From NCBI GenBank assembly GCA_041671645.1, contig JBAZBD010000001.1, positions 173,365-237,364 of the forward strand: a DNA stretch of 64,000 bases, written 5' to 3'. Shown in pieces: positions 1,006 through 55,163 of the stretch (positions are counted from its first letter, which is position 1; the number at the start of each line of letters is the position of its first letter). This DNA is from Patescibacteria group bacterium. Lineage in GTDB: Bacteria; Patescibacteriota; UBA1384; XYA2-FULL-43-10; 1-14-0-10-43-13. The notes under the pieces are model-generated. The model was not told where the DNA came from, searched no databases, and saw only the letters and a list, made by a program, of their open reading frames with translations. The position numbers and the translations under genes are program-made.

Positions 1006-2244
1006 ATGCAACACAACAACCAAAAATACGCCTTTGTGCTTGGTCGTGAGCGCGATTTGTGCTTGACGGAACTCTATGCAGTTCTAGTTCGTTTTGGTTT
1101 TTGTTTTACAGTTCCCAGTGTATATGACAATGTCGCAATCATCAATATTGAAAATGCGAACGAAAGTGATGTGGCGAGCTTGATTGAGAGTCTGGGCGGC
1201 ACGATGAAGATTTTCCGCATGATCGTCCCAGTCGATAAGCAAGTCAAGGACAGAATAATTTCTTATATTACGAGCTCAGAGAGAAGCCAGAAGAAATTCA
1301 ACTATACTATTTCTTCTTACTCACGACTTTTCAATTACAAATCGATCTTTGATCTCGGTCTTTCGATCAAAAAGGAGCTGAAAAAGGAGCTATCCTTGCG
1401 ATTCGTTGAAATTAGAGAGGGCAAGGACGCTTCAAGTATTTTGTCCTTGAAAAATCATTTTGTGGATCAAGGTTTTGAGTTTGGCTTGTTCGAAGCAGAT
1501 CTAGGCATTTTAATCGCTCTCACGGATGCGGAAGAGTGGGGCGAGCGTGATTATGATAAGCCATCTGGCGACAAGAGAAGCGGAATGCTTCCGCCAAAAT
1601 TAGCCAGGATGATGATCAATCTTGCGCTAGGATCGAAGAAACAAGAGGGAAAATCTCTCGTGATTGATCCTTTCTGTGGATCGGGCAATATTCTGATCGA
1701 AGCATTGCTTCTTGGCGCTGACGCGATGGGCTCGGACGTGAGCGAAAAAGCGGTTAATGATTCGATGAACAATATCAAATGGCTTGTTGAAAACCCGAAA
1801 TATAGAGACAAAATTACTGCCAAAAATCCGAAGCCGAAGGTGCATATAGACCAAGCCGATGCTTCCAATGTAGATTTTGCAAAACTACTTTCGACTTTCG
1901 ACTTTCGACTTTCAGACTACAACAGCGTAGCTGTGGTGGCCGAGCCGTTTCTGGGCGAGCCCAAGAAATTTAAACCTAGCTTGAACGCAGTCAAGGGCGA
2001 ATATGCAAAGATTCAGGAATTATACATTGATTTCCTCAAGAATATTCGACAATCAGGGCTTCCAATTAATTCGTTGGTTTTGATTTTTCCACTGGTAGAA
2101 ACGCTCGAAGGCAAGCTCTACAGTCTCTTCGACGCAAGTGTTGACGAAATTGAAAAAATTGGCTATAGTGTACTCACTAAACCACTTGTTTATGGTAGAG
2201 AATACCAGGTTGTGAAGCGAGAGATCGTTTTACTACAGTTTTAA
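1006..2244 (+). CDS. SAM-dependent RNA/DNA methyltransferase (UPF0020/THUMP-type, N6-adenine/N2-guanine MTase-like)
   Basis: Motif I DPFCGSGNILIEA and motif IV-like AEPFLGEP are present. The ORF is intact at 412 aa. Confidence 0.6.
   Translation: MQHNNQKYAFVLGRERDLCLTELYAVLVRFGFCFTVPSVYDNVAIINIENANESDVASLIESLGGTMKIFRMIVPVDKQVKDRIISYITSSERSQKKFNYTISSYSRLFNYKSIFDLGLSIKKELKKELSLRFVEIREGKDASSILSLKNHFVDQGFEFGLFEADLGILIALTDAEEWGERDYDKPSGDKRSGMLPPKLARMMINLALGSKKQEGKSLVIDPFCGSGNILIEALLLGADAMGSDVSEKAVNDSMNNIKWLVENPKYRDKITAKNPKPKVHIDQADASNVDFAKLLSTFDFRLSDYNSVAVVAEPFLGEPKKFKPSLNAVKGEYAKIQELYIDFLKNIRQSGLPINSLVLIFPLVETLEGKLYSLFDASVDEIEKIGYSVLTKPLVYGREYQVVKREIVLLQF
1888..1918. repeat. Heptanucleotide tandem repeat (TCGACTT)x3-4 inside the methyltransferase CDS, in frame
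   Basis: The sequence is tcgactttcgactttcgactttcagact and encodes STFDFRLSDY. Confidence 0.8.
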
Positions 2245-2272
2245 TTTGTAAATTATCCCAAAGGGGTACGTC

Positions 2273-2563
2273 ATGGCTCATAAAAAAGCCGCAGGTAGTA
2301 CAAGATTAGGTCGCGATTCCGTCTCCAAACGACTTGGAGTCAAGGTTTTTGGTGATCAATTTGTTACCGCTGGCGGAATCATCATCAGACAGCACGGTAC
2401 CAAATTTTATCCAGGACTCAACGTCGGAATGGGCGATGATTATACGATCTACGCTTCTATCGATGGCTTGGTTAGATTCCAGGAAAAACAGGTTACAGCT
2501 TTCAATGGCAACAAAGACAAGCGAACTTTTGTACATGTAGACGAAATTGTGGAAGGTAAATAA
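2273..2563 (+). CDS. rpmA: 50S ribosomal protein L27
   Basis: [29 protein letters not shown]...GTKFYPG is canonical L27. Confidence 0.95.
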
Positions 2564-3075
2564 TGCTTAAAATTCTCGAAAAATATACCAAGAAAAACAT
2601 TCCTGAAATTCGATCAGGCGACACAGTCAAGGTTCATATCCTGGTCAAAGAAGGCGCCAAAGAGCGCGTTCAGATCTTCGAAGGTCTAGTCATCGCTGTT
2701 CAGCATGGCCAGTCACTCGACGGTACTTTCACTGTTCGCAAAGAGTCCTTCGGTATCGGTGTTGAGAGAACATTTCCTCTTCACAGCCCAAGAGTTGTCA
2801 AAGTTGAGAGAATCAAACAATCCAAAGTCCGCCGAGCCAAACTTTACTTCATGAGAGAATTGACTGGCAAACACGCACGTCTCAAGGATCTCAACCGTGA
2901 TCACAAGGTTTGGGAAGAGAAGGGCGCCGAAGAAGAGCTAGAGAAGATTGCAGCTGAAACTGCTGCTATCGCTGAAGCCGCTGCTGCTGAAAAAGCTGCA
3001 GAGGAAGCCGAAATCGCAGCCAAAGTTGAGGCAGTCGCAGGCGACCGTATCGTAGAGGATAAAAAAGAAGACTAA
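2563..3075 (+). CDS. rplS: 50S ribosomal protein L19 with an Ala/Glu-rich C-terminal extension
   Basis: SGDTVKVHILVKEGAKERVQIFEGLVIAVQ...VRKESFGIGVERTFPLHSP...RRAKLYFMRE matches L19. The start overlaps the rpmA stop. Confidence 0.9.
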   Translation: MLKILEKYTKKNIPEIRSGDTVKVHILVKEGAKERVQIFEGLVIAVQHGQSLDGTFTVRKESFGIGVERTFPLHSPRVVKVERIKQSKVRRAKLYFMRELTGKHARLKDLNRDHKVWEEKGAEEELEKIAAETAAIAEAAAAEKAAEEAEIAAKVEAVAGDRIVEDKKED

Positions 3076-3103
3076 CTACCAAGTTATATACAGTGCTCCA
3101 AAA

Positions 3104-3137
3104 AATACCCAATCGAAAGATAATGGGTATTTTTTTA
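3104..3137 (+). terminator. Rho-independent terminator after rplS
   Basis: The stem aataccca/tgggtatt has loop atcgaaagataa and is followed by a T7 run. Confidence 0.75.
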
Positions 3138-3142
3138 ATTAA

Positions 3143-3337
3143 ATGCTATCATTGAAAAAACAACTTGGAGGAAATATGAACTCAGAAGAAATTGTCAAAG
3201 CAGTAGAAGCGGCTGTTGATACATACAAACAAGATCTTGATCAGGTGGGCAAGAAGCAAAAGCAAGTTCTAAGCGATTTTATTGGTCGTTTGGAGCAAGA
3301 AAAGATGGATAAGATACGGAAGGAAATAGTACTATGA
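3143..3337 (+). CDS. Small hypothetical protein; the likely start is the ATG at 3176 after GGAGG
   Basis: The ORF has the RBS ggaggaaat-ATG at 3176, and its stop overlaps the next gene's ATG (ATGA). Confidence 0.4.
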   Translation: MLSLKKQLGGNMNSEEIVKAVEAAVDTYKQDLDQVGKKQKQVLSDFIGRLEQEKMDKIRKEIVL

Positions 3338-5424
3338 AAGGCGCCGAAAAGGTTGGGGAAAATACAGGAGAAGAAATAAAGGGGCAAGAGGCAACGCCTG
3401 CCGCGGAGCCTAGTAATAGTGAAGTATTGAACAATCGTGCCGAGCAGGTCGTCGGTCTGAAGGGTCTTTCAGAAAATATTAGTAGCAGAAACAGCCAGAC
3501 AGCCGAACAAGTCGGTGGAAATTTGGACGCAGACGCGACTGAAATCGCTGGAGTCAAGGCAGAGATAGATAGAATTGGTGTACAGGAAGGTGGCGTTGCT
3601 CAAGCTAGATTGGCAGAATCACTTGAGAAAATCAGGCAAGAAGCAGGCTCTGACGGCGAGAATCCTGAGGAGATTGCCGCATTGGATAACTTGATCAAAC
3701 GGGTGAAGCCTAGCGCGGAGGAGAATAGTGAAGTTCAGCCTGACGTAGATTGGGACGAAAATTCGGCCAATTTTGATGAAGGCGACAAGCATATCGCGTC
3801 TGAAGGTGAGGAAACTCAGGACGCAGGGCCAGAGCAGAGAGACGACGATGAGAAAACAAAGATCTACGAAGAGCCGAATTTAGATCCTGCCGTCCAGAAG
3901 ATATATGAAGAGATTACAGCTCGTGCGGCCAAATGGACGCAAGAGGCACAGAGCGGCAAGTCTGGCGCGATTGCACAGACCGAATCGCGGAAAGACCCTG
4001 CTCGATACTCGGGCCAGATGAACTTCTTGAGCTCCAGAGGAGTTTGGGAAAGATTTGCCAAAGATTATCCCGAAAAAGCGTTGGCTTACGCTGATAAGAA
4101 TGAGGACATTGCCGAGGGCTTGGCGGCTTCTGCCCCGCGTGCAGAAAAATCCGATGGAGCGCCGAAAATTATTCCCGGCGAAGCAGGGCCCGAAATGCCT
4201 GCAGAAGAAGATGAAACGCCAGGCGAGGAATCAGAATCGGAGACAGACAAAATGATTCAGGAGCTTGGTCTCGAAGATGCTTCGCCTGAGAATCCAGTCA
4301 AAATGCAGTGGGCCAACGAGGATGGCGATGTCGAGGTATCAGTCACTGGGGTCAATGAAGAGCCAGGTGCTGATGGCAGGACGTATGCTAGGGCTTTTGA
4401 CGAGGAAACTGGCGCAGAGTTTGAGGTGCCGCTAGACGAATTGCAGTCGATCGATCTAGCTGTCGGGGAGGAGGACGATGGATCCCCAGACGAAGAGGGC
4501 GAAGCTCAGAAGAAGGAAGCGCCAACCGAGAAAGAGGGCGAGGATGAGCCGACTCAGGCCGAAGCAGACGAGAAGAATAATGCTTATCGTGAGAAGATCT
4601 CTCAAGAGAGACAGCTGCGGATACGTGACCGCCTAGAGAGACGGGGCAAAGAGCAGGCAGAGAGAGACGAAGTGGCAGTACAATCAATTACGATGAGCCT
4701 AGAGAAGGCTAGTACTGCTCTTGCGGAGACGAAAGCCGATACGGGAGAAGAGAGCATATCGAAAATCGGTCCGGCTCTGAAGCTGTTAAATGAAAGTGGT
4801 GCTACCAAGAGAGAGCTTGCTATCCAACTTCTGCCTTCTGTCAGAGCTTTTGCTCGAAACATGGATAAATCATCTTCTGACCCAACTGCAGCGGAAACCA
4901 TTACAGCACAGAAAATACTCGGTAATCGAGAAGCTGGCGACCAGAGGTTGCAAGAAGCATTTGTCAAAATTAATTCATTGAATCAGGAGACAGACAAAGT
5001 CTCTGGCGGCGAATCCATGGCGTATTTGATGAAATATATCGTGAAAAACTCCGAGGGTAAACTTGGCAACCCTGCCCAGAAAGATGACATTGAAGCTCCC
5101 CAGGCACAAAATGATACGGTTGAAGAGGCTGAACCTTTGACTGCGGAGCGACCAATTGCTAATCAGGCAGAAGGAGCTGATTTAGGCGGTGATGAAGTTG
5201 GGGACGAAGGAAATGAACCAGGGTCCAGGAACGCCGACACAGTTGAAGAACCAAGCACGGCCCAAGATGGAGATCAAGAAGCGGCAAATCCATATAGCGA
5301 TCCGGAGGCTCAGCCAGATGTAAATTGGGATGACAATTCGGCCGAATTCGATGAGGCTGATAGGGAAATTGCCCAGTCAGATCAGACCGAGAAAACAGAA
5401 GCAAAAGCAGACAGCGGGGAATAA
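3334..5424 (+). CDS. Very acidic (D/E/A-rich) low-complexity hypothetical protein with an internally duplicated motif
   Basis: The 696-aa ORF carries the motif QPDV(D/N)WD(E/D)NSA(N/E)FDE(G/A)D(K/R)xIA near both the N- and C-termini. I see no signal peptide. Confidence 0.6.
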   Translation: MKGAEKVGENTGEEIKGQEATPAAEPSNSEVLNNRAEQVVGLKGLSENISSRNSQTAEQVGGNLDADATEIAGVKAEIDRIGVQEGGVAQARLAESLEKIRQEAGSDGENPEEIAALDNLIKRVKPSAEENSEVQPDVDWDENSANFDEGDKHIASEGEETQDAGPEQRDDDEKTKIYEEPNLDPAVQKIYEEITARAAKWTQEAQSGKSGAIAQTESRKDPARYSGQMNFLSSRGVWERFAKDYPEKALAYADKNEDIAEGLAASAPRAEKSDGAPKIIPGEAGPEMPAEEDETPGEESESETDKMIQELGLEDASPENPVKMQWANEDGDVEVSVTGVNEEPGADGRTYARAFDEETGAEFEVPLDELQSIDLAVGEEDDGSPDEEGEAQKKEAPTEKEGEDEPTQAEADEKNNAYREKISQERQLRIRDRLERRGKEQAERDEVAVQSITMSLEKASTALAETKADTGEESISKIGPALKLLNESGATKRELAIQLLPSVRAFARNMDKSSSDPTAAETITAQKILGNREAGDQRLQEAFVKINSLNQETDKVSGGESMAYLMKYIVKNSEGKLGNPAQKDDIEAPQAQNDTVEEAEPLTAERPIANQAEGADLGGDEVGDEGNEPGSRNADTVEEPSTAQDGDQEAANPYSDPEAQPDVNWDDNSAEFDEADREIAQSDQTEKTEAKADSGE

Positions 5425-5440
5425 GTGCTAGGATTATGAT

Positions 5441-7807
5441 ATGAAATTGTTTAAAAACAATATAAAAAGAGTTGGCTCATTCAAGCTAAAAGATTTTGAG
5501 TTGGTCAAAAACCATTACCTTGCTAGAGCATCAGAACTTAATCGACTCATAAATGGATCTAACAAAACCGAATCTCTGGCCGAGAATTCAAAGCGAGCTT
5601 ATTATCTGCATTGTTTTATCGACGATATGAGGGATTTGGGCTATCCGGAGATCGCGGATGGTCTTGAGGAGGCCTTAGCCAAAAGATATCACGATCCGAA
5701 AATATTGTTGAATATCGCTGAAGCAGGACTGTCCAGGATTCTTTCCAGTTTCGAAGGCAAAATCAGATTGGGGGAGAACGAATACCATATTCGTAATGGC
5801 AAAGCATATTACCAAAGTGTTTTTGACAAATGGTACGAGCTAAAAGGTGTTCAAGTCTTTCTCCTTACTCCTGATCTGGGCGAAGAAGTCGTCCCAATTG
5901 ATGCCGAGGGCGAAAAGGGCATCAATGAATATCAAACTTTTCTTCGAGCATGGCGAGAATCCGGTGGCAGAGACAATTTTGATTTTAGCTCGACAGACGG
6001 TGATACGACTCCAGAGAACTACTTCGAATCTTCTGTAAATGAAATTAGTAAAATTATTGAGACTCCAATAAGTTCAGAGGCGATCTTGGCAAAAATCGGT
6101 AGCGAGCAAAAATTTGAAAGAATCTTCAAAGTCGCTGCTAGGTTGATCAAATTTGTCAAAGAAATTCGAGATAGCGGCGTCTCGCCAGTCTACCTTTTGC
6201 GAGACGGCCTAATGTTCGCCGAGGCACAGAAAGCGCTTGATTTCGCTTCAGGGCAGGACACGCTGAGCGGACAATTGATGATCAACCGCAAGTTGCTGAG
6301 TAAGGAACCGGATGACCATTATTATTGGGCATTGGCGTCCGATGCGCTTTACGTCGCTCTGCCGAAGAACGGCCGTGATTTTGATCTTTTTTACAAGAAT
6401 TATTGCCAGGAGATGGCTAGACTCAAGATAAAAGAGCCCGGGTTTAAAGAACTGCTTAGTCGACTTGGTTTATACGTTTCCTCCCAGTTATCACATCTCA
6501 AGGGGTCGAAGAAAATATTGGTTGTAGACACTGGTCTCCAGGGGTCTATTAACATGCTCACCAAATACGTTATTGATTTCCACACTGATCTGGATGTGCC
6601 AGTAGACGTGGAAATGTTCGTGGTTGGAGATTGGCTGAAGCGAATCTATCAGAAAAGATACGCCAGCGATTATTACCCGATCCTGAAAGACATTGAGATA
6701 TTCAATCGAAGTGACCATTTGTACAATTACAGATCTGGAAGTTTCGAATCGGGGAAAGTAGAAGTAACCATGGGTAGCGAAGCTGAACAATTGATGGCTC
6801 ATGTCGAATTGATAATCATCACGATGTTGTGCAAATTGATGGATGAGCAGAAATCGGCGCCCAAAGTATCTCCAGCTGAGGCGGCTTCAGGCGGTATGGC
6901 AAACCAGTATTCTCTCGATGGATTTAAGCTGGCAAAAACTTTGGCTGACCCCTCAAAACCCCTAACGTCTCACACTGTAGAATTGTGGGAAAACCATCAG
7001 GGCGAACGTCTCGTGGTTAAGACCGTTTCGGATGGCCTTGAGCACAGTTTATCAGCAGATATTATCGGTCAACGTTGCTTCACTCTGCTGGGTTTGCCGT
7101 CGCCCCGGACGTCCCTGATAGAGCACGACGACAAATATCGTTTGGTGATGGAGTTTCTCGACGGGTACAAGACACCAGATGATCCCCTAGCTCTGCCCCT
7201 GGGCCAAGAAAATAATCGAGTGATCCAATCTGGCATTCTAGCTGATATCTGGCTCCATCATTATGATCGGCAGCCTTACAATTTCATGTTCAAGGGCGAT
7301 GAGCCTGTATTTATTGATTTCGGAGGGTGTTTGACCTCTTCGCCAAGCGGCAAAATTACTGGTTTTCCGGCCGAAATTACAGATCAGGAAATATTGAATT
7401 GCATCAAAGCTTTTCAGGGCGATTATCCGGTCAATCAAGCGTATGGAGAAGTCATTTCTTTTAACCCAAGCTCGAAAAAGATTGTTGTCAAAGATGCTGA
7501 ACTTCTGGCTCGACTGGCTGATCAACTCTCCAAGGTTTCCGATGAACAAATCGAGGCGATTGTCAGTCAGAACATTTTGTTTTTCCAAAAACATAATCCA
7601 GACAGAATCCAACATATCCTGGACAATTTGGAGGAAAACTTGAAGATACCAATTGAGAAACTTCACTATGCTCATTACCATAATAATTTCCTCGAGGCAC
7701 GCGATACTTTTGCCCGCGTTAGAGATGAATTTGATTCTGATGAATCAAACTATATTCAGTTTGCGCTGAAGCAACGACGTGATATGTTGGTGAAAAGATT
7801 TAAATAA
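5441..7807 (+). CDS. Hypothetical protein with a C-terminal atypical protein-kinase-like (PI3/4K-like) catalytic core
   Basis: The C-terminal region has RLVVKTV (Lys), a hinge at VMEFLDG, the catalytic loop WLHHYDRQPYNFMF (HxDxxxxN / DRxxxN) and FIDFGG (DFG). The N-terminal ~500 aa is unrecognised. Confidence 0.6.
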   Translation: MKLFKNNIKRVGSFKLKDFELVKNHYLARASELNRLINGSNKTESLAENSKRAYYLHCFIDDMRDLGYPEIADGLEEALAKRYHDPKILLNIAEAGLSRILSSFEGKIRLGENEYHIRNGKAYYQSVFDKWYELKGVQVFLLTPDLGEEVVPIDAEGEKGINEYQTFLRAWRESGGRDNFDFSSTDGDTTPENYFESSVNEISKIIETPISSEAILAKIGSEQKFERIFKVAARLIKFVKEIRDSGVSPVYLLRDGLMFAEAQKALDFASGQDTLSGQLMINRKLLSKEPDDHYYWALASDALYVALPKNGRDFDLFYKNYCQEMARLKIKEPGFKELLSRLGLYVSSQLSHLKGSKKILVVDTGLQGSINMLTKYVIDFHTDLDVPVDVEMFVVGDWLKRIYQKRYASDYYPILKDIEIFNRSDHLYNYRSGSFESGKVEVTMGSEAEQLMAHVELIIITMLCKLMDEQKSAPKVSPAEAASGGMANQYSLDGFKLAKTLADPSKPLTSHTVELWENHQGERLVVKTVSDGLEHSLSADIIGQRCFTLLGLPSPRTSLIEHDDKYRLVMEFLDGYKTPDDPLALPLGQENNRVIQSGILADIWLHHYDRQPYNFMFKGDEPVFIDFGGCLTSSPSGKITGFPAEITDQEILNCIKAFQGDYPVNQAYGEVISFNPSSKKIVVKDAELLARLADQLSKVSDEQIEAIVSQNILFFQKHNPDRIQHILDNLEENLKIPIEKLHYAHYHNNFLEARDTFARVRDEFDSDESNYIQFALKQRRDMLVKRFK

Positions 7808-44727: not shown

Positions 44728-44877
44728 AATAGTATTATATACTGCTCCAAAGTAGTAGTCAAGACTTCGTGACAGGTATAGTCAAAATCTCGATTCTAAT
44801 AACAAAAAAGTGAGTCACGGAGCCAACAATCGGTAAATAAGACAGTCACGATATAGTGACAAATTGGTCATAAACCC

Positions 44878-44906
44878 TTGACAATCCCAAATAGGCATGC
44901 TATAAT
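44878..44906 (+). promoter_or_regulatory. Consensus sigma70 promoter
   Basis: TTGACA, a 17-nt spacer, TATAAT. Confidence 0.65.
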
Positions 44907-44912
44907 ATACCC

Positions 44913-45364
44913 ATCACGATGAGAAAGGCGAACAACCCACAGGAGGATTAGGCCGCTGCCCAGACTGATAGAACATTTACAACCAAATAGGTACATAGGT
45001 AGAAAAAGATCAAGCCCTATCAATAGATAAGGCGATCCCGATCACAAATGGCACAATCCGGCTCGTATCTCAGGAGATAAGAGCGCAAATTCACGCCACT
45101 TGAGATCATCCCCAGCACACTCAATTGAGTCGCAAGGGGAATTACCCGAATCCCGATCAAATTCCCGCCCCTTAGGCGGAAATATGGAAGATATTATCAA
45201 TATCCGGTTTGGCCGCACAGGTTCAAGCATTTACAAGATAATACATCATATATATAGGATCAGATTCAACCGACTTATGAGTAGTACATTTATCCATGAC
45301 ACAGGAGTTTAGCGATAAGTATAAAACTCACCCCCCATCCTTCGCAAGAAGGGTGATGGGGGGC
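44913..45364 (+). ncRNA. Candidate ~450-nt non-coding transcript of unassigned class, ending in a strong GC hairpin
   Basis: The region has no ORF with an RBS. Internal hairpins include GGGGAATT...AATTCCC and CCGCC-CCTTA-GGCGG. The terminal hairpin CACCCCCCATCC-ttcgcaagaa-GGGTGATGGGGGG is at 45329-45364, with no T-run after it. Confidence 0.3.
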
Positions 45365-45460
45365 TTCCTCAGGAGGGGCAATATTCGTAAGTGTCAACGG
45401 CGCGAATAACGGCGTTTGAGCTCATATCGAGCATATACGCCAGAATTAACGCCAGACCGG

Positions 45461-45585
45461 AATTACTAATTAATAGTTACTAATTACCTAATTAAATCTC
45501 AAGATCCGAGTGTCCAATTGGACATTAAATAATTGGGACTTATTTAGAAATTAGAGCAATTAGATCAATTAGAAATTCTATATAT
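45461..45585. repeat. AT-rich ttctaatt/aattag-family repeat cluster; it contains the 14-bp perfect palindrome TGTCCAATTGGACA (45511-45524)
   Basis: ttactaattaatagttactaattacctaatt ... ttagaaattagagcaattagatcaattagaaatt. Confidence 0.6.
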
Positions 45586-45699
45586 CTTTCTACCATCATT
45601 TCTGATCACTCGGCCGAAACGCCCTGAGAGAAATAGTTTGCTGTGTCCAAAATTTATGTGGCACACACTATCCTACTCTTTTCGCTTTGACGGTGATCG

Positions 45700-45830
45700 G
45701 AGCAGTTCTTCTGGCCTATTCGGCTGTGCTTGCCATCTATTATATAGGTGACCAGCCAGCTGAATTAGGCATCCCGGTAGAAGCACTGAAACCCGTAAGG
45801 GGGAGGTTAAGCTTCGGGAGGAGAATTATA
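45700..45830 (+). promoter_or_regulatory. Conserved ~110-130 nt 5' leader module, copy 1 (duplicated at 46676-46792)
   Basis: ccagctgaattaggcatcccggtagaagcactgaaacccgtaagggggaggttaagcttcgggaggag is ~90% identical to copy 2. The RBS GGGAGGAG can pair with the upstream CCCG. Confidence 0.55.
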
Positions 45831-46184
45831 ATGATACTGAACAATAAGCCAGAGGCCGTGGAGCTTCTGATGTCTCTCGGCTATCGCGAAGCCGACGGAA
45901 AATTTTCGAAAGACAATAATGAGGGCCACACAGTCGTGGTCGAATTCGTTGAAACTACAACCAATGACGGTACAACCGTGCCAATTATGGTGGTAGCGGA
46001 CCCATATTTCACCCCGGGTGGGGTGTTCCGTACCTCGAGTGAGGTATTCCATTATCCTATCGATGCGGGATCCCTGCACGAGGGGATCGGATATTTCCTC
46101 CATCAGGAGGATATAGAAGTCTGGGTGGACGAAGAGGGGGAGGAGCAATCCTCCAGCAGCAACAAAAACTACTGCTGGATATAA
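45831..46184 (+). CDS. Small hypothetical protein P1 (117 aa); the ORF frame extends upstream to 45687
   Basis: The start MILNNKPEAV is 7 nt after GGGAGGAG. It is followed by a conserved 3' hairpin and a terminator. Confidence 0.5.
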   Translation: MILNNKPEAVELLMSLGYREADGKFSKDNNEGHTVVVEFVETTTNDGTTVPIMVVADPYFTPGGVFRTSSEVFHYPIDAGSLHEGIGYFLHQEDIEVWVDEEGEEQSSSSNKNYCWI

Positions 46185-46526
46185 GCAGTAGCCATTAAAC
46201 TATTGGTTTTGCTTGTTGAGCCATTGTATCAACAAGCCGGGTGCCAGACTGAATTCTGGCAGTTCAAAGGAGGTTTTTATGACTTTGAACGTTTAGGTTT
46301 GCTGGTTGTCCGTTAACAATCAGATATGGTCGTAACACACTTGCACGACCAATCTCACCCTGAGGAGAGCAAGGGGTAAGTCAGCCCATTTCTGCCTAAA
46401 AAGCAAGCAGAAATAAAGAGACAAGGCCGATTCTCGATCGGCGTTGAGGTGATAACTTCAGGAGTTTCACCAATCGAGAAACAGGCTTCTATTGCCTGGG
46501 ACGAAAGTCCGAAAATAGCAATTTCA

Positions 46527-46549
46527 TCTCTCGCCACGAAGGTGAGAGA
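46527..46549 (+). repeat. Conserved 3' hairpin element H1 (copy also at 47187-47209)
   Basis: tctctcgcc-acgaa-ggtgagaga inside the shared aattcatctctcRccacgaaggtgagagaaaat. Confidence 0.6.
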
Positions 46550-46558
46550 AAATATCCC

Positions 46559-46610
46559 GAAGCGCACCGCAAAGTGAATTATTCACTTGGTGCGCTTCAA
46601 ACCTTTTGAT
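46559..46610 (+). terminator. Rho-independent terminator T1
   Basis: A 10-bp stem GAAGCGCACC...GGTGCGCTTC is followed by aaaccttttg. Confidence 0.7.
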
Positions 46611-46675
46611 TCTGAATGTATTAAATAAACTATTTATTTAGCCATGCCGAATTAAAACGACAAAATCCTTTAAGT

Positions 46676-46792
46676 ATTTCCTACTCGGCTGCGCCCTGCA
46701 CCTTTTCGAAGATGAATGGCCAGCTGAATAGGCATCCCGATAAAAGCACTGAAACCCGAAAGGGGGAGGTTAAGCTTCGGGAGGAGAAAAAG
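46676..46792 (+). promoter_or_regulatory. Conserved 5' leader module, copy 2
   Basis: cctactcggctgcgc...ccagctgaataggcatcccgataaaagcactgaaacccgaaagggggaggttaagcttcgggaggag. Confidence 0.55.
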
Positions 46793-47056
46793 ATGATCAC
46801 AAAAGGCACAATCCGCAAAGCGCGGGTTGAAAATATTGCGAACGGAAAGATCTCCGTTCGCACCGGAAATTATGCCGGAACTTCGGCACATGATGTTGCC
46901 GAGTTCGAAATCTCCGGCAATTTGCCGGAGATTGGGAGATTCATCTCCCTCAGCGTCCAGCATGAGCGCTGGACTGAAACGTGCCAGGATGGCGATGATC
47001 AGCTGCAATCATATTGCAGCCGGCATAGTGTCAGTAAATGGCACTATGTCGAGTAG
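46793..47056 (+). CDS. Small hypothetical protein P2 (87 aa)
   Basis: The start MITKGTIRKAR is 6 nt after GGGAGGAG. It is followed by hairpin H2 and terminator T2. Confidence 0.45.
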   Translation: MITKGTIRKARVENIANGKISVRTGNYAGTSAHDVAEFEISGNLPEIGRFISLSVQHERWTETCQDGDDQLQSYCSRHSVSKWHYVE

Positions 47057-47186
47057 AATGGTCAGCTGTTTAGAGATATCAGTGCAAAAAATAATCTTAT
47101 CGAATCATCTGCGGAAAGATGGATAAAGTTGCAGGACTGTATGTCTGCCGTCACTTGTCGAGGACGAATCAGAGACAACGAATTCA

Positions 47187-47209
47187 TCTCTCACCACGAA
47201 GGTGAGAGA
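47187..47209 (+). repeat. Conserved 3' hairpin element H2
   Basis: tctctcacc-acgaa-ggtgagaga, a perfect 9-bp stem. Confidence 0.6.
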
Positions 47210-47218
47210 AAATTACCG

Positions 47219-47264
47219 GAGAGACATTGCCATAACGGCGGTGTCTCTCAACCTTTTTCTTTTG
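47219..47264 (+). terminator. Rho-independent terminator T2
   Basis: The stem GAGAGACA...TGTCTCTC is followed by aacctttttctttt. Confidence 0.7.
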
Positions 47265-47289
47265 AGAAATAGACAAATCAACCATTTGA

Positions 47290-47580
47290 TTTATTTTTCC
47301 TCGAAAGAGGATTGATTTTTTTGACCTGCGGGTGCAAATGTGGCGGCTTGAGCCGCCTTAAGAGCACAAGTTCTTGAGAGCTAACGCTTTCAGGGCAAGC
47401 ATTTGAGAGCGGCAACCTATTAACCATAATTTATGGAGAGGAGGAACAAGTTGCCAACTCCTGCATTTCGCTCGCAGATCCAAATTATTTATTAAGAAAA
47501 CCGTCAATAGAAATATCGGCGGTTTTTTGTTATTCATTTTCTTTCGTCAATACTTTATACTAAATACAAACCACTAATTT
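47290..47580 (+). promoter_or_regulatory. Structured ~290-nt leader upstream of mntH with a terminator/attenuator hairpin (47497-47528); candidate riboswitch or attenuator
   Basis: Hairpins include GGCGGC-ttga-GCCGCC (47342-47357) and GGCAAC...GTTGCC. The attenuator hairpin AAAACCG...CGGTTTTTT sits just before the RBS gtgagggg. Confidence 0.4.
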
Positions 47581-47591
47581 GTGAGGGGAAT

Positions 47592-49058
47592 ATGTCGGAA
47601 GAAAAATACGTTGCAGAAGTAGCGGCTCAGTCGGACGGACACAAACATTTCACGATCTCGGAATTTCGCCATGAACTAGGCATTCCGCTCATTTTGGCTC
47701 GCAAGCTTATTGTTTGGGGTATCGTCGAAGTTGAGAGAACGGCCGATGGCACATTCCGTATCACCGAAGCAGAGCTCAATGAAGCGCGGGAAATTCTAAA
47801 GCATCCCTTCACCAAGGCGAAGCTTTTCTTTCGTGCTCTCGGGCCTGGAATCATTACAGGCGCGGCGGATGACGACCCTTCTGGTATAGGCACTTACTCT
47901 TCGGTCGGCGCACAGTATGGCTTTGGCTTGATATGGTTGGCGCCATGGCTCTTGCCACTTATGACAGCGGTGCAGGAAGCCTGCGCTCGTATCGGCATTG
48001 TCACCAACAGAGGGCTGGCTGGAGTGCTGATGAAACATTATCGCAAGTGGTTTGTTGCGATTATTATTTTGCTTTTGATCGTAGCCAACGTCGCCAACAT
48101 CGGAGCGGATATTTCCGCCATGTCTGCGACTGTCAATATGCTTGTCCCAGTAAACTATTATGTAGTGGCGGTCGCCCTGACCGTATTGATCATATTGATT
48201 GAGATAATGATACCGTATCGGGTCTACTCCAAAATATTAAAGTGGCTCACTTTGTCGCTCTTCGCCTATCTAATCACGGGATTCATCATCCATCCTGATT
48301 GGCTCATGATCTTCAAAGAGGCACTCACGCCCAATGTTATTTTCGACAAGGCATATATATTCGCAATAGTGGCAGTCTTTGGAACTACGATCAGCCCCTA
48401 CCTATTCTTCTGGCAAACTTCTGAGGAAGTGGAGGAGAAAAAGGTTGAGAGGCGTGAAGGGACATTACAGAAGCTGACCGGCCGAATTGCCCATATGAGA
48501 ACAGATGTGAGGACAGGGATGGTTTTTGCCAATCTAACATTCTTCTTCATCGTTCTAACAACTGCCAAGGTGCTCAATGCAAACGGAATTTTTAGCATTG
48601 ATTCGCCTCAGCAGGCAGCTGAAGCGCTTCGACCCTTTGCTGGTGACCAAGCATTTCTGCTATTCGCTCTAGGAATTCTGGGCACTGGTCTCTTGGCCAT
48701 ACCTGTCCTGGCCGGCTCGGGCGCTTACGCTCTTGCGGAGCTGATGAACTGGCGTGAGGGACTGGACGAGAAGTTCTCAAGGGCCAAGGCCTTTTATCTA
48801 GTTATTTCCTTCTCCGTGATCGTCGGCCTGCTCCTCAATTTCATCGGCATTAATCCGATGAAAGCACTCTACTACTCTGCATATCTCAACGGTATTATTT
48901 CGATTCCTCTTCTCTTCGTGATCATGATCGTGGGGAACGACAAGAGAATTATGGGCCGCGAGACTCATCCGGCTTGGGTCAAAATATTTGGCTGGGCCGC
49001 CTTTGCCTTCGCCTCGGCTGGACTAGTCCTGACCATTATATTGAGCTTGGTCAAATAA
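47592..49058 (+). CDS. mntH: NRAMP-family divalent metal (Mn2+/Fe2+) transporter with a ~70-aa N-terminal extension
   Basis: LGPGIITGAADDDPSGIGTYSSVGAQYGFGLIW matches the NRAMP DPGN region. There are ~11 TM helices. Confidence 0.8.
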   Translation: MSEEKYVAEVAAQSDGHKHFTISEFRHELGIPLILARKLIVWGIVEVERTADGTFRITEAELNEAREILKHPFTKAKLFFRALGPGIITGAADDDPSGIGTYSSVGAQYGFGLIWLAPWLLPLMTAVQEACARIGIVTNRGLAGVLMKHYRKWFVAIIILLLIVANVANIGADISAMSATVNMLVPVNYYVVAVALTVLIILIEIMIPYRVYSKILKWLTLSLFAYLITGFIIHPDWLMIFKEALTPNVIFDKAYIFAIVAVFGTTISPYLFFWQTSEEVEEKKVERREGTLQKLTGRIAHMRTDVRTGMVFANLTFFFIVLTTAKVLNANGIFSIDSPQQAAEALRPFAGDQAFLLFALGILGTGLLAIPVLAGSGAYALAELMNWREGLDEKFSRAKAFYLVISFSVIVGLLLNFIGINPMKALYYSAYLNGIISIPLLFVIMIVGNDKRIMGRETHPAWVKIFGWAAFAFASAGLVLTIILSLVK

Positions 49059-49066
49059 AATCCCCG

Positions 49067-49345
49067 CTATGCCTTAGGCAGCGGGGTGATTGCGTAGTTC
49101 TCCCTGAAAACGTACCCACTTATGTGGAGATGGAAATTTTCTCCATCCTTTGTTAGTACAAGTACTTTACCGACCATGATGTCGTTTAGTGTTATCAGAC
49201 GGTATCCAGACAGCTCCTCTGGAAGATTTTCAACCTCAAAAGTTTGGGTTGTCGGGTGAAAGTAGGCAGGCACCATGATGGGGCCTTGTTTAAGCTCTGG
49301 GCTTACACATATCATGTAAACCGGCGGTTTTGTTTCTCCTGACAT
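49067..49345 (-). CDS. Hypothetical protein (92 aa)
   Basis: The RBS aggagg is upstream of the ATG. The gene is convergent with mntH and has no overlap. Confidence 0.45.
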   Translation of the reverse strand: MSGETKPPVYMICVSPELKQGPIMVPAYFHPTTQTFEVENLPEELSGYRLITLNDIMVGKVLVLTKDGENFHLHISGYVFRENYAITPLPKA

Positions 49346-53801: not shown

Positions 53802-54041
53802 TCAATAACGGATTACCCCGAGACAAAGTCTTCCCTTCGGGAAAGGGGACCCTTAGGGTCGAATTGTTCAAATTACAAATGTCCAACAGAACAAGTCGCT
53901 CGAAAGAGCGGTTTCTGTGTTTAAACACATTGACAAATTGAGCTCAAAGTGATATAATGTATTGGTGATTAGTCAATCACCAACGGCTCTGCCGTAGGCT
54001 GATCAACGCAGCTATACAACAAATTCGAGCTGCCCATTTGC

Positions 54042-55163
54042 ATGTTGGGTCGGCTCTCAAGGGAGGAAATCATGCACAAATTTCTGTTATTGGCTGTACA
54101 GGTGACCCTCCGGATTATTCTAGGGATCATCCTGGGGATCTGGATAGTACTGTCCTCCATTGTCATGGGCGTGTACTACGCTCTGGAATACGCCTGGCGA
54201 AAGCTCAGCGAAGTTCAAGGGCAATGGAACAAGGCGGTTTCGCTCGGCGCCTACCTGGCTCCGATTTTGATCGTCTTGGCACTCGTTCTGTGGTGGCCTC
54301 AAAAAAAGGTCCACCGCGTCACCCCGTCTCCACGCTCTGCCCCGACTGCCAAAGCGCCGATCCAGGCGCCAACTCCTGATCAGGTAATCATCCCTGACGT
54401 TCCGCAGCCCAATATGCCGATCAAGTCAACGGGAAGCGGAAGCCTTTCAAACGTTCTGGTTATCCTTGACCCGGGTCACGGTGGCAACACCCCCTGGGAT
54501 GGGGTAGACCCGGGCTGCTACTGGCAGTTCAACGGCCAGGAGTATTATGAGGCGGCGTACACATATCGCATGGCCAAGGAGCTTGGCGATATGGTCCGTG
54601 CCGAAGGCGGCGATGTTGCTTACACGGCTTGGTCTCCGACCATGGAGGTGTCGACCTCGCCGCGCGTGGCGATGCCTTTGCCTGTTACTCCGCTTCTCCC
54701 GAACGGTGTGAAACTGACCAACAACGGGACAGGCCTCACGGCTCGTGCTGACGCGGCGAACGCTCTGTACCAGGCTCACAAGGCCAAGTACAGGGGCGTC
54801 TTCTTCCTCTCGCTGCATATCGACAGTATGGGCGAAGGTTGGGACGGGTTGCATGTCTGCTACGATCGACATGCGTCCGAGATGCCGCGCTTGGCTGAGC
54901 TGATCTCGCAAGGGATCAACGAGGGCCGGTATGGCCGACGCTATAAGGGTGTCGCCAAAGAGATAGTCGAAGCTCGTGGCCTCGCAGTGCTGAATCGGAA
55001 TCATAATCCGTTGAAGCACCGAGTGTTGATCGAGCTTGGGATCCCCGGTGATCCCAATGATTCGTGGCGCCTCAGAAATGAGGGCAACCGCCGGAAAATG
55101 CTGGAAAAAGTGGCTCTGCGGCCGCTACTCCAGCTTGCCGAGGAGGTGAAAAAAAGAAAGTGA
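54042..55163 (+). CDS. N-acetylmuramoyl-L-alanine amidase (Amidase_3 family) with an N-terminal TM anchor
   Basis: LVILDPGHGGNTPWDGVDPG and LSLHIDS match Amidase_3. The TM segment is LGIILGIWIVLSSIVMGVYYAL. Confidence 0.75.
   Translation: MLGRLSREEIMHKFLLLAVQVTLRIILGIILGIWIVLSSIVMGVYYALEYAWRKLSEVQGQWNKAVSLGAYLAPILIVLALVLWWPQKKVHRVTPSPRSAPTAKAPIQAPTPDQVIIPDVPQPNMPIKSTGSGSLSNVLVILDPGHGGNTPWDGVDPGCYWQFNGQEYYEAAYTYRMAKELGDMVRAEGGDVAYTAWSPTMEVSTSPRVAMPLPVTPLLPNGVKLTNNGTGLTARADAANALYQAHKAKYRGVFFLSLHIDSMGEGWDGLHVCYDRHASEMPRLAELISQGINEGRYGRRYKGVAKEIVEARGLAVLNRNHNPLKHRVLIELGIPGDPNDSWRLRNEGNRRKMLEKVALRPLLQLAEEVKKRK

Follow-up and report, generated by a model that had tools for sequence, protein, structure and literature searches.

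A structured RNA between a TrmB-family regulator and a variable gene array is conserved in a clade of Patescibacteria

The island at positions 44728-47591 of a 64-kb stretch of a Patescibacteria genome (this whole stretch is called the window, and all window-level counts are confined to it) is one copy of a four-part unit that occurs in a Patescibacteria clade. The unit consists of an S-adenosylmethionine (SAM)-dependent methyltransferase, a TrmB-like regulator, a strong promoter followed by a structured leader RNA, and an array of variable genes. The firmest part of this finding is the transcript free of open reading frames (ORFs), which, judged from its conservation and covariation, is a conserved structured RNA; it is new in that no family of Rfam 15 matches it. 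Most likely, the RNA is not a free molecule of 450 nt but the long leader of a polycistronic array. Literature searches returned no description of this locus.

A four-part unit and its variable cargo

Relatives were collected via the TrmB-like protein, which has 44 homologues with 33-65% identity, each one fetched adjoining the RNA start. The neighbourhoods of 11 homologues, one genome match and the window made up 13 distinct loci from related Patescibacteria/Saccharibacteria. The same order of SAM-methyltransferase, TrmB-like regulator, divergent promoter with GTCA-N8-TGAC palindromes and RNA 5' start (YGUYACGAUGAG) was found in all of them (13/13), and the RNA 3' hairpin was also kept in 12/13. 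Divergent from TrmB there follow 0.9-2.2 kb without called genes, and then same-strand genes that differ by locus. The flanks vary (ksgA-Nramp, dnaA-dnaN-recF, glycosyltransferase clusters), and therefore the unit, not the neighbourhood, is conserved. Five loci have the unit next to ksgA and Nramp, namely the window, L007, L010, L016 and L012, where ksgA is cut at the contig end. The Nramp gene of the window (47592-49058) lies downstream of the array and that of L007, L010 and L016 between ksgA and the methyltransferase, so either the unit has been relocated or the region has been rearranged.

The near-consensus promoter was observed in 13/13 loci, and its distance from the TrmB start is ~117-212 nt, mostly ~165 nt. 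A GTCA-N8-TGAC palindrome stands at the TrmB-promoter position in 12/13 loci (the exception is L014) and at the -35 position in 10/13; of the three palindromes in the window, the first shares positions with the TrmB promoter and the last with the RNA promoter's -35. The palindromes are probable operators, and we infer that the TrmB-like protein binds them. The TrmB mRNA is probably leaderless because the -10 of its promoter ends 7 nt before the ATG. The methyltransferase adjoins TrmB in all related loci, with a length of 512-1119 aa, mostly 900-1119 aa. The window protein lacks the N-terminal ~600 aa of its relatives, a region without Pfam match, and a short form also occurs in L022 (512 aa); the GTG start of the window gene overlaps the end of ksgA. 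Sequence searches of the PDB with the methyltransferase and TrmB queries gave generic methyltransferase matches only.

Most cargo genes of the relatives had no Pfam match, and some loci carried defence-like cargo (ThiF-E1 with JAB, HepT/MNT, Csx3, HD, helicases, GIY-YIG). The L007 cargo at 2024-5794 (minus strand) consists of five overlapping genes in an operon, among whose products are a ThiF/E1-like and a JAB-domain protein, and resembles ubiquitin-like defence systems, with HepT/MNT genes further on. Cargo genes within one locus are unrelated to each other. A few are common to several loci, leaders included, and the first cargo gene of L007 is 78% identical to that of L013. Around the unrelated cargo, intergenic modules are repeated within a locus with 78-98% identity. 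Three unrelated genes of L003 (214, 196 and 177 aa), for example, are parted by a 240-nt multi-hairpin module whose copies are 95-98% identical, the last being cut at a fixed junction, and CCCCUAAAGGAGGGG before each ORF is a hairpin that holds its ribosome-binding site. Repeats of the same kind, with other sequences, were found in L002, L020, L013, L016 and L010. The window had first been described from its letters alone (the original prediction) as a cassette system, a family of co-regulated small proteins or an RNA-regulated system; as an architecture this holds, since several loci have unrelated cargo and locus-specific repeated modules, in each case downstream of the one conserved promoter and RNA.

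Structure and extent of the leader RNA

The original prediction had described in the island a consensus promoter, an ORF-free stretch, duplicated leaders, 3' hairpins and terminators, and had placed it between a TrmB-like regulator and mntH. All of these features were recovered in place and all of them above chance, the promoter with a full TTGACA-17-TATAAT match, and a Pfam scan of the neighbours identified a TrmB-family regulator and an Nramp transporter. About 0.9 kb downstream of the promoter contains no credible ORF. With a codon model trained on 25 long window genes, the ORFs inside 44907-45700 had negative coding scores in all frames, and none had a ribosome-binding site. The proposed check against Rfam returned nothing in the island, either at gathering score or at E<=10, but only tRNAs elsewhere in the window, and tRNAs were also the only matches at gathering score in ten related loci.

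The RNA begins with a rod-like 5' domain, and the same four-helix architecture emerged from independent minimum-energy folds in 8/13 loci. In a hand-made alignment of those eight, drawn up with knowledge of the structure and thus with somewhat inflated pairing figures, 94.8% of cells pair versus 72.8% in column shuffles, and pairing falls to 31-47% when the partners are slid by 1-3 columns. Compensatory (both-side) changes were seen in 12/18 pairs, and each position of the apical helix P3 shows four or five pair types. The 3' hairpin was searched with a covariance model, which found exactly one strong match per locus in 12/13 loci, at the expected place, with 55-74 bits on the sense strand versus <=23 bits antisense. 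Its alignment showed pairing in 93.8% of cells with 6 compensatory pairs, and the observed covariation was reached by 0/500 shuffles. The window 3' hairpin scored 65 bits with this model (R1) at the expected place and strand, and the window 5' domain fits the common fold. The leader fold is specific to the transcribed strand because many of its pairs are G-U. Between the two domains lie a conserved strand, AGMACMUUNACAA, and a variable middle. The most divergent locus, L023, keeps the promoter and the RNA 5' start.

Three or four hairpins of the leader carry an AGGA loop closed by C-G at conserved places: P3, the 3' hairpin and YYY[AGGA]GGG. The last of these, YYYAGGAGGG, follows the 3' hairpin in the window, L007, L010, L013 and L014, and L003 has TCCAGGAGAG there. 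The window copy, CUCAGGAGGGGC at 45368-45379, is Shine-Dalgarno-like with no start codon at the right spacing, and has equivalents in several loci. AGGAG occurs five times in the window leader versus 0.9 expected. An NTG is present at +9 to +15 of the RNA in 13/13 loci (ATG in 11, TTG in 1, CTG in 1; 44913-44945 in the window) and opens ORFs of 5-19 codons that start with MRK and are otherwise conserved neither in length nor in sequence. A small leader-encoded peptide was judged unlikely, with only the MRK in common and negative coding scores inside the leader. RNase P or tmRNA in disguise was also rejected: the similarities seen by eye are short and not kept in relatives, and Rfam finds nothing.

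The original prediction ended a transcript of ~450 nt at a 13-bp GC hairpin. The hairpin is present and has a homologue in L013 (91% over 32 nt) that is followed there by a T-run, but the predicted end did not stand: the hairpin is not a canonical terminator, because CUUCCUCAGG rather than a U-tract follows it, and sequence conservation continues to ~45462. BLAST of the 45396-45462 region gave 95% identity over 21 nt to L004, and the first 0.55 kb of the RNA is conserved. In the related loci, no consistent intrinsic terminator was found on the way from the conserved RNA to the first cargo gene. When eight loci were scanned, the conserved promoter was the only sense-strand site matching >=10/12 in the first 3 kb, with one exception at 47403 of the window. 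The RNA is most likely a long leader because conservation passes the GC hairpin, no U-tract follows it and no other strong promoter precedes the cassettes. A metagenome scan with the RNA pattern TTTATCCAN... gave zero matches, which is uninformative since most relatives have CCTTGAC.

Window cassettes and feature coordinates

Downstream of the leader, the window holds two cassettes (Table 1). The ~110-nt 5' module, which carries GCACTGAAACCCGNAAGGGGGAGG, is a real repeat. Its identity, originally put at ~90%, was measured as 83% over 111 nt (45715-45825 versus 46680-46788) and 95% over the last 60 nt (45766-45825 versus 46729-46788), and shuffles gave zero matches. Each of the three core substitutions is in a loop or keeps the pair (G-U versus A-U), and the upstream hairpin, whose apical sequence is not the same in the two copies, still folds in that part. 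The pairing of CCCG with the ribosome-binding site that the original prediction pointed out is present in the predicted folds of both copies, where it covers part of the GGGAGGAG site only. The conserved 3' hairpin and the terminator said to follow each ORF were both located. Chance would give zero matches of the 3' hairpin TCTCTCRCCACGAAGGTGAGAGA, which stands at 46527-46549 and 47187-47209; the hairpin has the structure TCTCTCRCC-ACGAA-GGTGAGAGA and pairs only on the plus strand, because a G-U in copy 1 is an A-U in copy 2. The hairpin-plus-terminator regions have folding z-scores of -7.0 and -5.8, and the terminator U-runs are set off from the stems by AAACC and AACC.

The two cargo ORFs are annotated as hypothetical proteins of a Patescibacteria metagenome-assembled genome, and comparison bore out that they are unrelated to each other. 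Pfam and PADLOC gave nothing for either. A word-indexed search of 5.8 billion proteins returned for each only the self match, and an exhaustive HMMER search of 1.84 billion representatives found no relatives of ORF1 apart from one marginal match. The coding score of ORF1 is within the range of real genes (0.25-0.43). The AlphaFold2 model of ORF2, computed without alignment, had a predicted local distance difference test score (pLDDT) of 43 and was uninformative. A 21-nt same-sense repeat with 1 mismatch (45040-45060 versus 46795-46815; ~0.01 expected by chance) has one copy in an insertion of the leader RNA that is specific to the window and the other in codons 2-8 of ORF2, and may be a recombination scar.

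Other elements of the island recur in relatives. The two-hairpin element also occurs in L007, where the gene before it is unrelated, and each of its stems shows compensatory changes. Downstream of it, the window and L007 alike have AGGAGG and a 5-codon mini-ORF (window 46279-46296, MTLNV and stop; L007 ~1925-1945, minus strand, MKHFY and stop) that could be a leader peptide or a translational-coupling device. The element at 47255-47310 lies in L013 and L016 30-60 nt upstream of the next cargo gene. Beyond the island, a 92-aa ORF at 49067-49345 (minus strand), between Nramp and rsmI, has no Pfam match and a moderate coding score (0.22). A second TTGACA-17-TATAAT promoter at 53931-53959 shares its extended context, CATTGACAAAT, with the leader promoter, and is followed by ~100 nt of untranslated sequence and a GC-rich gene at 54042-55163.

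Table 1 Features of the island and its upstream neighbours (window positions)
Feature	Position	Strand	Remarks
SAM-dependent methyltransferase, 511 aa	42425-43960	+	Methyltransf_23/25; convergent with TrmB
TrmB-family winged-helix regulator, 256 aa	43957-44727	-	Pfam PF01978, E=3e-10; divergent from RNA
TrmB gene promoter, TTGACT-17-TATAAT	44734-44762	-	11/12 match
Control region, three GTCA-N8-TGAC palindromes	44758-44882	.	44758-44773, 44845-44860, 44867-44882
Leader-RNA promoter, extended sigma-70, TTGACA-17-TATAAT	44878-44906	+	12/12 match plus upstream TG
5' domain, rod-like hairpin of four helices (P1, P2, P2b, P3)	44911-44971	+	loop with CAGGAG as cap
Conserved single-stranded AGMACMUUNACAA, boxA-like	44970-44982	+	after the 5' hairpin, 13 loci; window form AGAACAUUUACAA
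Conserved 3' hairpin, AUUUAUCC..AC[AGGA]GU..GAUAAGU	45278-45330	+	covariance model
13-bp GC hairpin	45329-45364	+	followed by CUUCCUCAGG
Shine-Dalgarno-like hairpin, CUUCCUC[AGGA]GGGGC	45364-45379	+	no start codon; read from sequence
GGCG...ACGCC hairpins, distal end of conserved leader	45396-45462	+	alignment with L003, L004
AT-rich spacer with short tandem repeats	45461-45714	+	AATTACT x4.7 (45461-45494), AATTAGAGC x2.8 (45549-45573)
Cassette 1 leader module	45715-45830	+	long hairpin, then three-tier hairpin predicted to pair CCCG with CGGG of the GGGAGGAG ribosome-binding site
Cargo ORF1, 117 aa, ORFan, WC227_01055	45831-46184	+	coding score 0.32
Two-hairpin element, second loop CUGAAU	46205-46261	+	common to L007
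Cassette 1 trailer	46527-46598	+	3' hairpin, then terminator-like hairpin 46559-46598 and AAACCUUUU
Cassette 2 leader module	46680-46792	+	repeat of cassette 1 module and predicted fold
Cargo ORF2, 87 aa, ORFan, WC227_01060	46793-47056	+	coding score weak, 0.12, though best in own frame
Cassette 2 trailer	47187-47249	+	3' hairpin, then terminator hairpin 47219-47249 and AACCUUUUUCUUUU
Inter-cassette element, TTTTCTTTTGAGAAATAGACAAATCAAC..TTGATTTATTTTTCCTCGAAAGAGG	47255-47310	+	90-100% identical pieces in L013, L016
Possible degenerate third cassette (weak reading)	47403-47535	+	promoter-like site 10/12, Shine-Dalgarno and 14-codon TTG ORF, terminator ~47495-47528

Proposed mechanism, rival readings and known systems

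We tentatively propose, with a confidence slightly short of even, that the RNA is a cis-acting array leader combining TrmB gating, 5' protection, boxA-like antitermination and per-cassette tuning. The TrmB-like protein would bind the palindromes and gate both its own promoter and that of the RNA, which would act in cis as an array leader and not as a free small RNA. The 5' hairpin and the Shine-Dalgarno-like AGGA loops would protect the transcript, and the boxA-like element would recruit Nus-type antitermination. RNA polymerase could then cross ~1-2 kb of untranslated, hairpin- and terminator-rich sequence, and one regulated promoter would serve the whole array. Each cassette leader would partly occlude its ribosome-binding site and set translation, and the cassette 3' hairpin with its leaky terminator would stabilise or attenuate each cistron.

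Precedents exist for two of these steps. Shine-Dalgarno-like 5' stabilisers are known from STAB-SD (stabilising Shine-Dalgarno) of cry3A, and the STAB-SD and 5' stem-loop stabilisers of Gram-positives (cry3A, aprE) likewise have a long 5' untranslated region, AGGAGG without start codon and, at the very 5' end, a stem-loop (PMC4113751); here, unlike there, several Shine-Dalgarno-like sites are placed within hairpins that are conserved and covary. Precedents for boxA as an antiterminator of long non-coding arrays are CRISPR arrays and suhB (PMC7665894, PMC5725501). The boxA/Nus leaders of rRNA operons, lambda nut and CRISPR arrays share with the present RNA a hairpin followed by single-stranded A/U-rich ..UUAACAA near the 5' end, and a long untranslated transcript that needs to pass termination signals, but the leader here is far larger than a nut site.

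Several points weigh against the array-leader model. The start, end and processing of the RNA are predictions from consensus scans and folding, and the 5' pairing figures come from the hand-made alignment. Against the consensus GYTCTTTAANA, which was taken from PMC5725501, the boxA-like strand matches a modest 6/10 specified positions in the window and up to 8/10 in L002, L020 and L022 (overall range 6-8/10), and AGMACMUUNACAA also resembles the local -35 context; the boxA reading is thus a lead only. L023, which lacks the 3' hairpin, has a clean 9-bp terminator at ~+300 (+299-320; ~7700-7680, minus strand) and may make a short RNA. The hairpins between cassettes are terminator-like and would cut a polycistronic transcript unless overridden. 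The finding of a single promoter comes from a consensus scan, and weak non-consensus promoters may precede the cassettes.

The main rival, which we consider unlikely, is a stand-alone trans-acting RNA, a sponge like CsrB/RsmZ, whose AGGA loops would titrate a GGA-binding (CsrA-like) protein or 30S subunits; the cassettes would be mere neighbours or targets, and the titrated factor would also act on their GGAGG ribosome-binding sites. The same C[AGGA]G loop recurs at conserved places in three or four hairpins downstream of a very strong, conserved promoter, and it is similar to the repeat CAGGA(U/A/C)G that CsrB displays in its hairpin loops. CsrB/RsmZ also combine a strong promoter with repeated GGA in short hairpin loops, but the present RNA has 3-5 GGA sites versus about 18-22 in CsrB, lacks in most loci a terminator that would define a small RNA, and shows no sequence or Rfam similarity to them. 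Between leader RNA and cassette modules there is no complementarity beyond 9-11 nt. For the presumed partner, csrA has been reported among the highly expressed genes of ultra-small groundwater prokaryotes (PMC9938205), whereas tblastn with E. coli and B. subtilis queries found no CsrA gene in 336 kb of sequence from these loci, a small part of each genome.

A broader proposal, which we hold to be rather improbable, is that the unit is an undescribed integrase-independent cassette system of Patescibacteria. A TrmB-gated promoter and a ~0.5-kb AGGA-loop leader RNA would head a row of mutually unrelated genes (ORFan or defence), each enclosed by genome-specific 5'/3' hairpin modules. These modules would be units of capture or exchange as well as handles for a shared control at the RNA level, in which a protein or the ribosome would bind the AGGA loops.

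There is little chance that the ~110-nt leader modules free the GGGAGGAG ribosome-binding site in response to a ligand, as riboswitches, or to temperature, as RNA thermometers, a reading close to that of the original prediction. Such a switch would fit the predicted CCCG/CGGG pairing, which occludes part of the site in both copies, as well as the structure-neutral core substitutions and the apical hairpin that differs yet folds. However, the modules have no Rfam match at gathering score or E<=10, and the exact degenerate pattern of the leader core occurs neither in species-representative genomes (596 Gb) nor in Joint Genome Institute (JGI) metagenomes. The leaders at the same position in other loci are quite different in sequence, unlike a conserved aptamer. 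Copy 2 has a folding z-score of only -1.35, and two copies that are 83-95% identical leave no covariation to test.

We give equally little credence to the idea that a mobile element left its immunity region here, as a relic or domesticated. A repressor and a divergent early promoter with operators would then precede a nut-like site (hairpin and boxA) and small accessory genes between terminators. This layout parallels the cI/PL-nutL-N region of lambda, and elsewhere the cargo includes defence-like and toxin-antitoxin genes (ThiF with JAB, HepT/MNT, Csx3, GIY-YIG) in units whose flanks differ between genomes. No integrase, replication or structural genes accompany the unit, though, and the RNA motif is absent from the 2.9 million contigs of IMG/VR. 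The unit is chromosomal, beside ksgA and Nramp in five loci, and the GC content and GC skew of the island are like those of its surroundings.

The least probable reading, to which we assign a very small chance, is an integron-like or site-specific capture array, in which recombination would take place at the hairpin modules, folded in single-stranded DNA, and the strong promoter would be that of the array. The island is not an integron, since two defining features were looked for and not found: no tyrosine or other recombinase (IntI included) was among the called genes of the 13 loci, and zero attC core pairs (R'' RYYYAAC ... R' GTTRRRY) were found on either strand of 44728-47591 versus 0.5 expected. 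The 110-155 nt conserved 5' of each cassette, ending at the start codon, are also unlike attC geometry, with conserved sequence on both sides of the ORF, and a 0.55-kb structured RNA with a TrmB regulator stands in place of intI/attI. The integron remains attractive as an analogy because nothing else explains homogenised flanks around unrelated genes: as in chromosomal integrons, a row of unrelated, mostly ORFan genes of variable content would be read from one upstream promoter, the repeats are homogeneous within a locus and different between genomes, some cassettes are common to loci together with their leader, and the last module of L003 is cut at a fixed junction.

A further parallel is offered by defence loci of the BrxR/CapW type, in which a conserved winged-helix regulator and promoter precede interchangeable, partly defence-like cargo. 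Unlike in those loci, the regulator here is of the TrmB family, the promoter is separated from the cargo by a long, conserved and structured RNA, and most cargo genes are ORFans without match to defence models.

Patescibacteria genomes are tiny, about 0.87 Mb, with little non-coding DNA, and this clade still keeps ~1-2 kb of untranslated, probably strongly transcribed and structurally constrained RNA before a gene row that varies between strains. The homogeneous modules that flank unrelated genes raise the concrete question of how cassettes are gained. If the leader lets one regulated promoter express interchangeable accessory and defence genes, the unit would be a compact way to carry a flexible gene pool in a minimal genome, and the RNA would be a sizeable new structured class, with recurrent AGGA-loop hairpins, in a phylum for which the literature searched describes no regulatory RNA of such kind.

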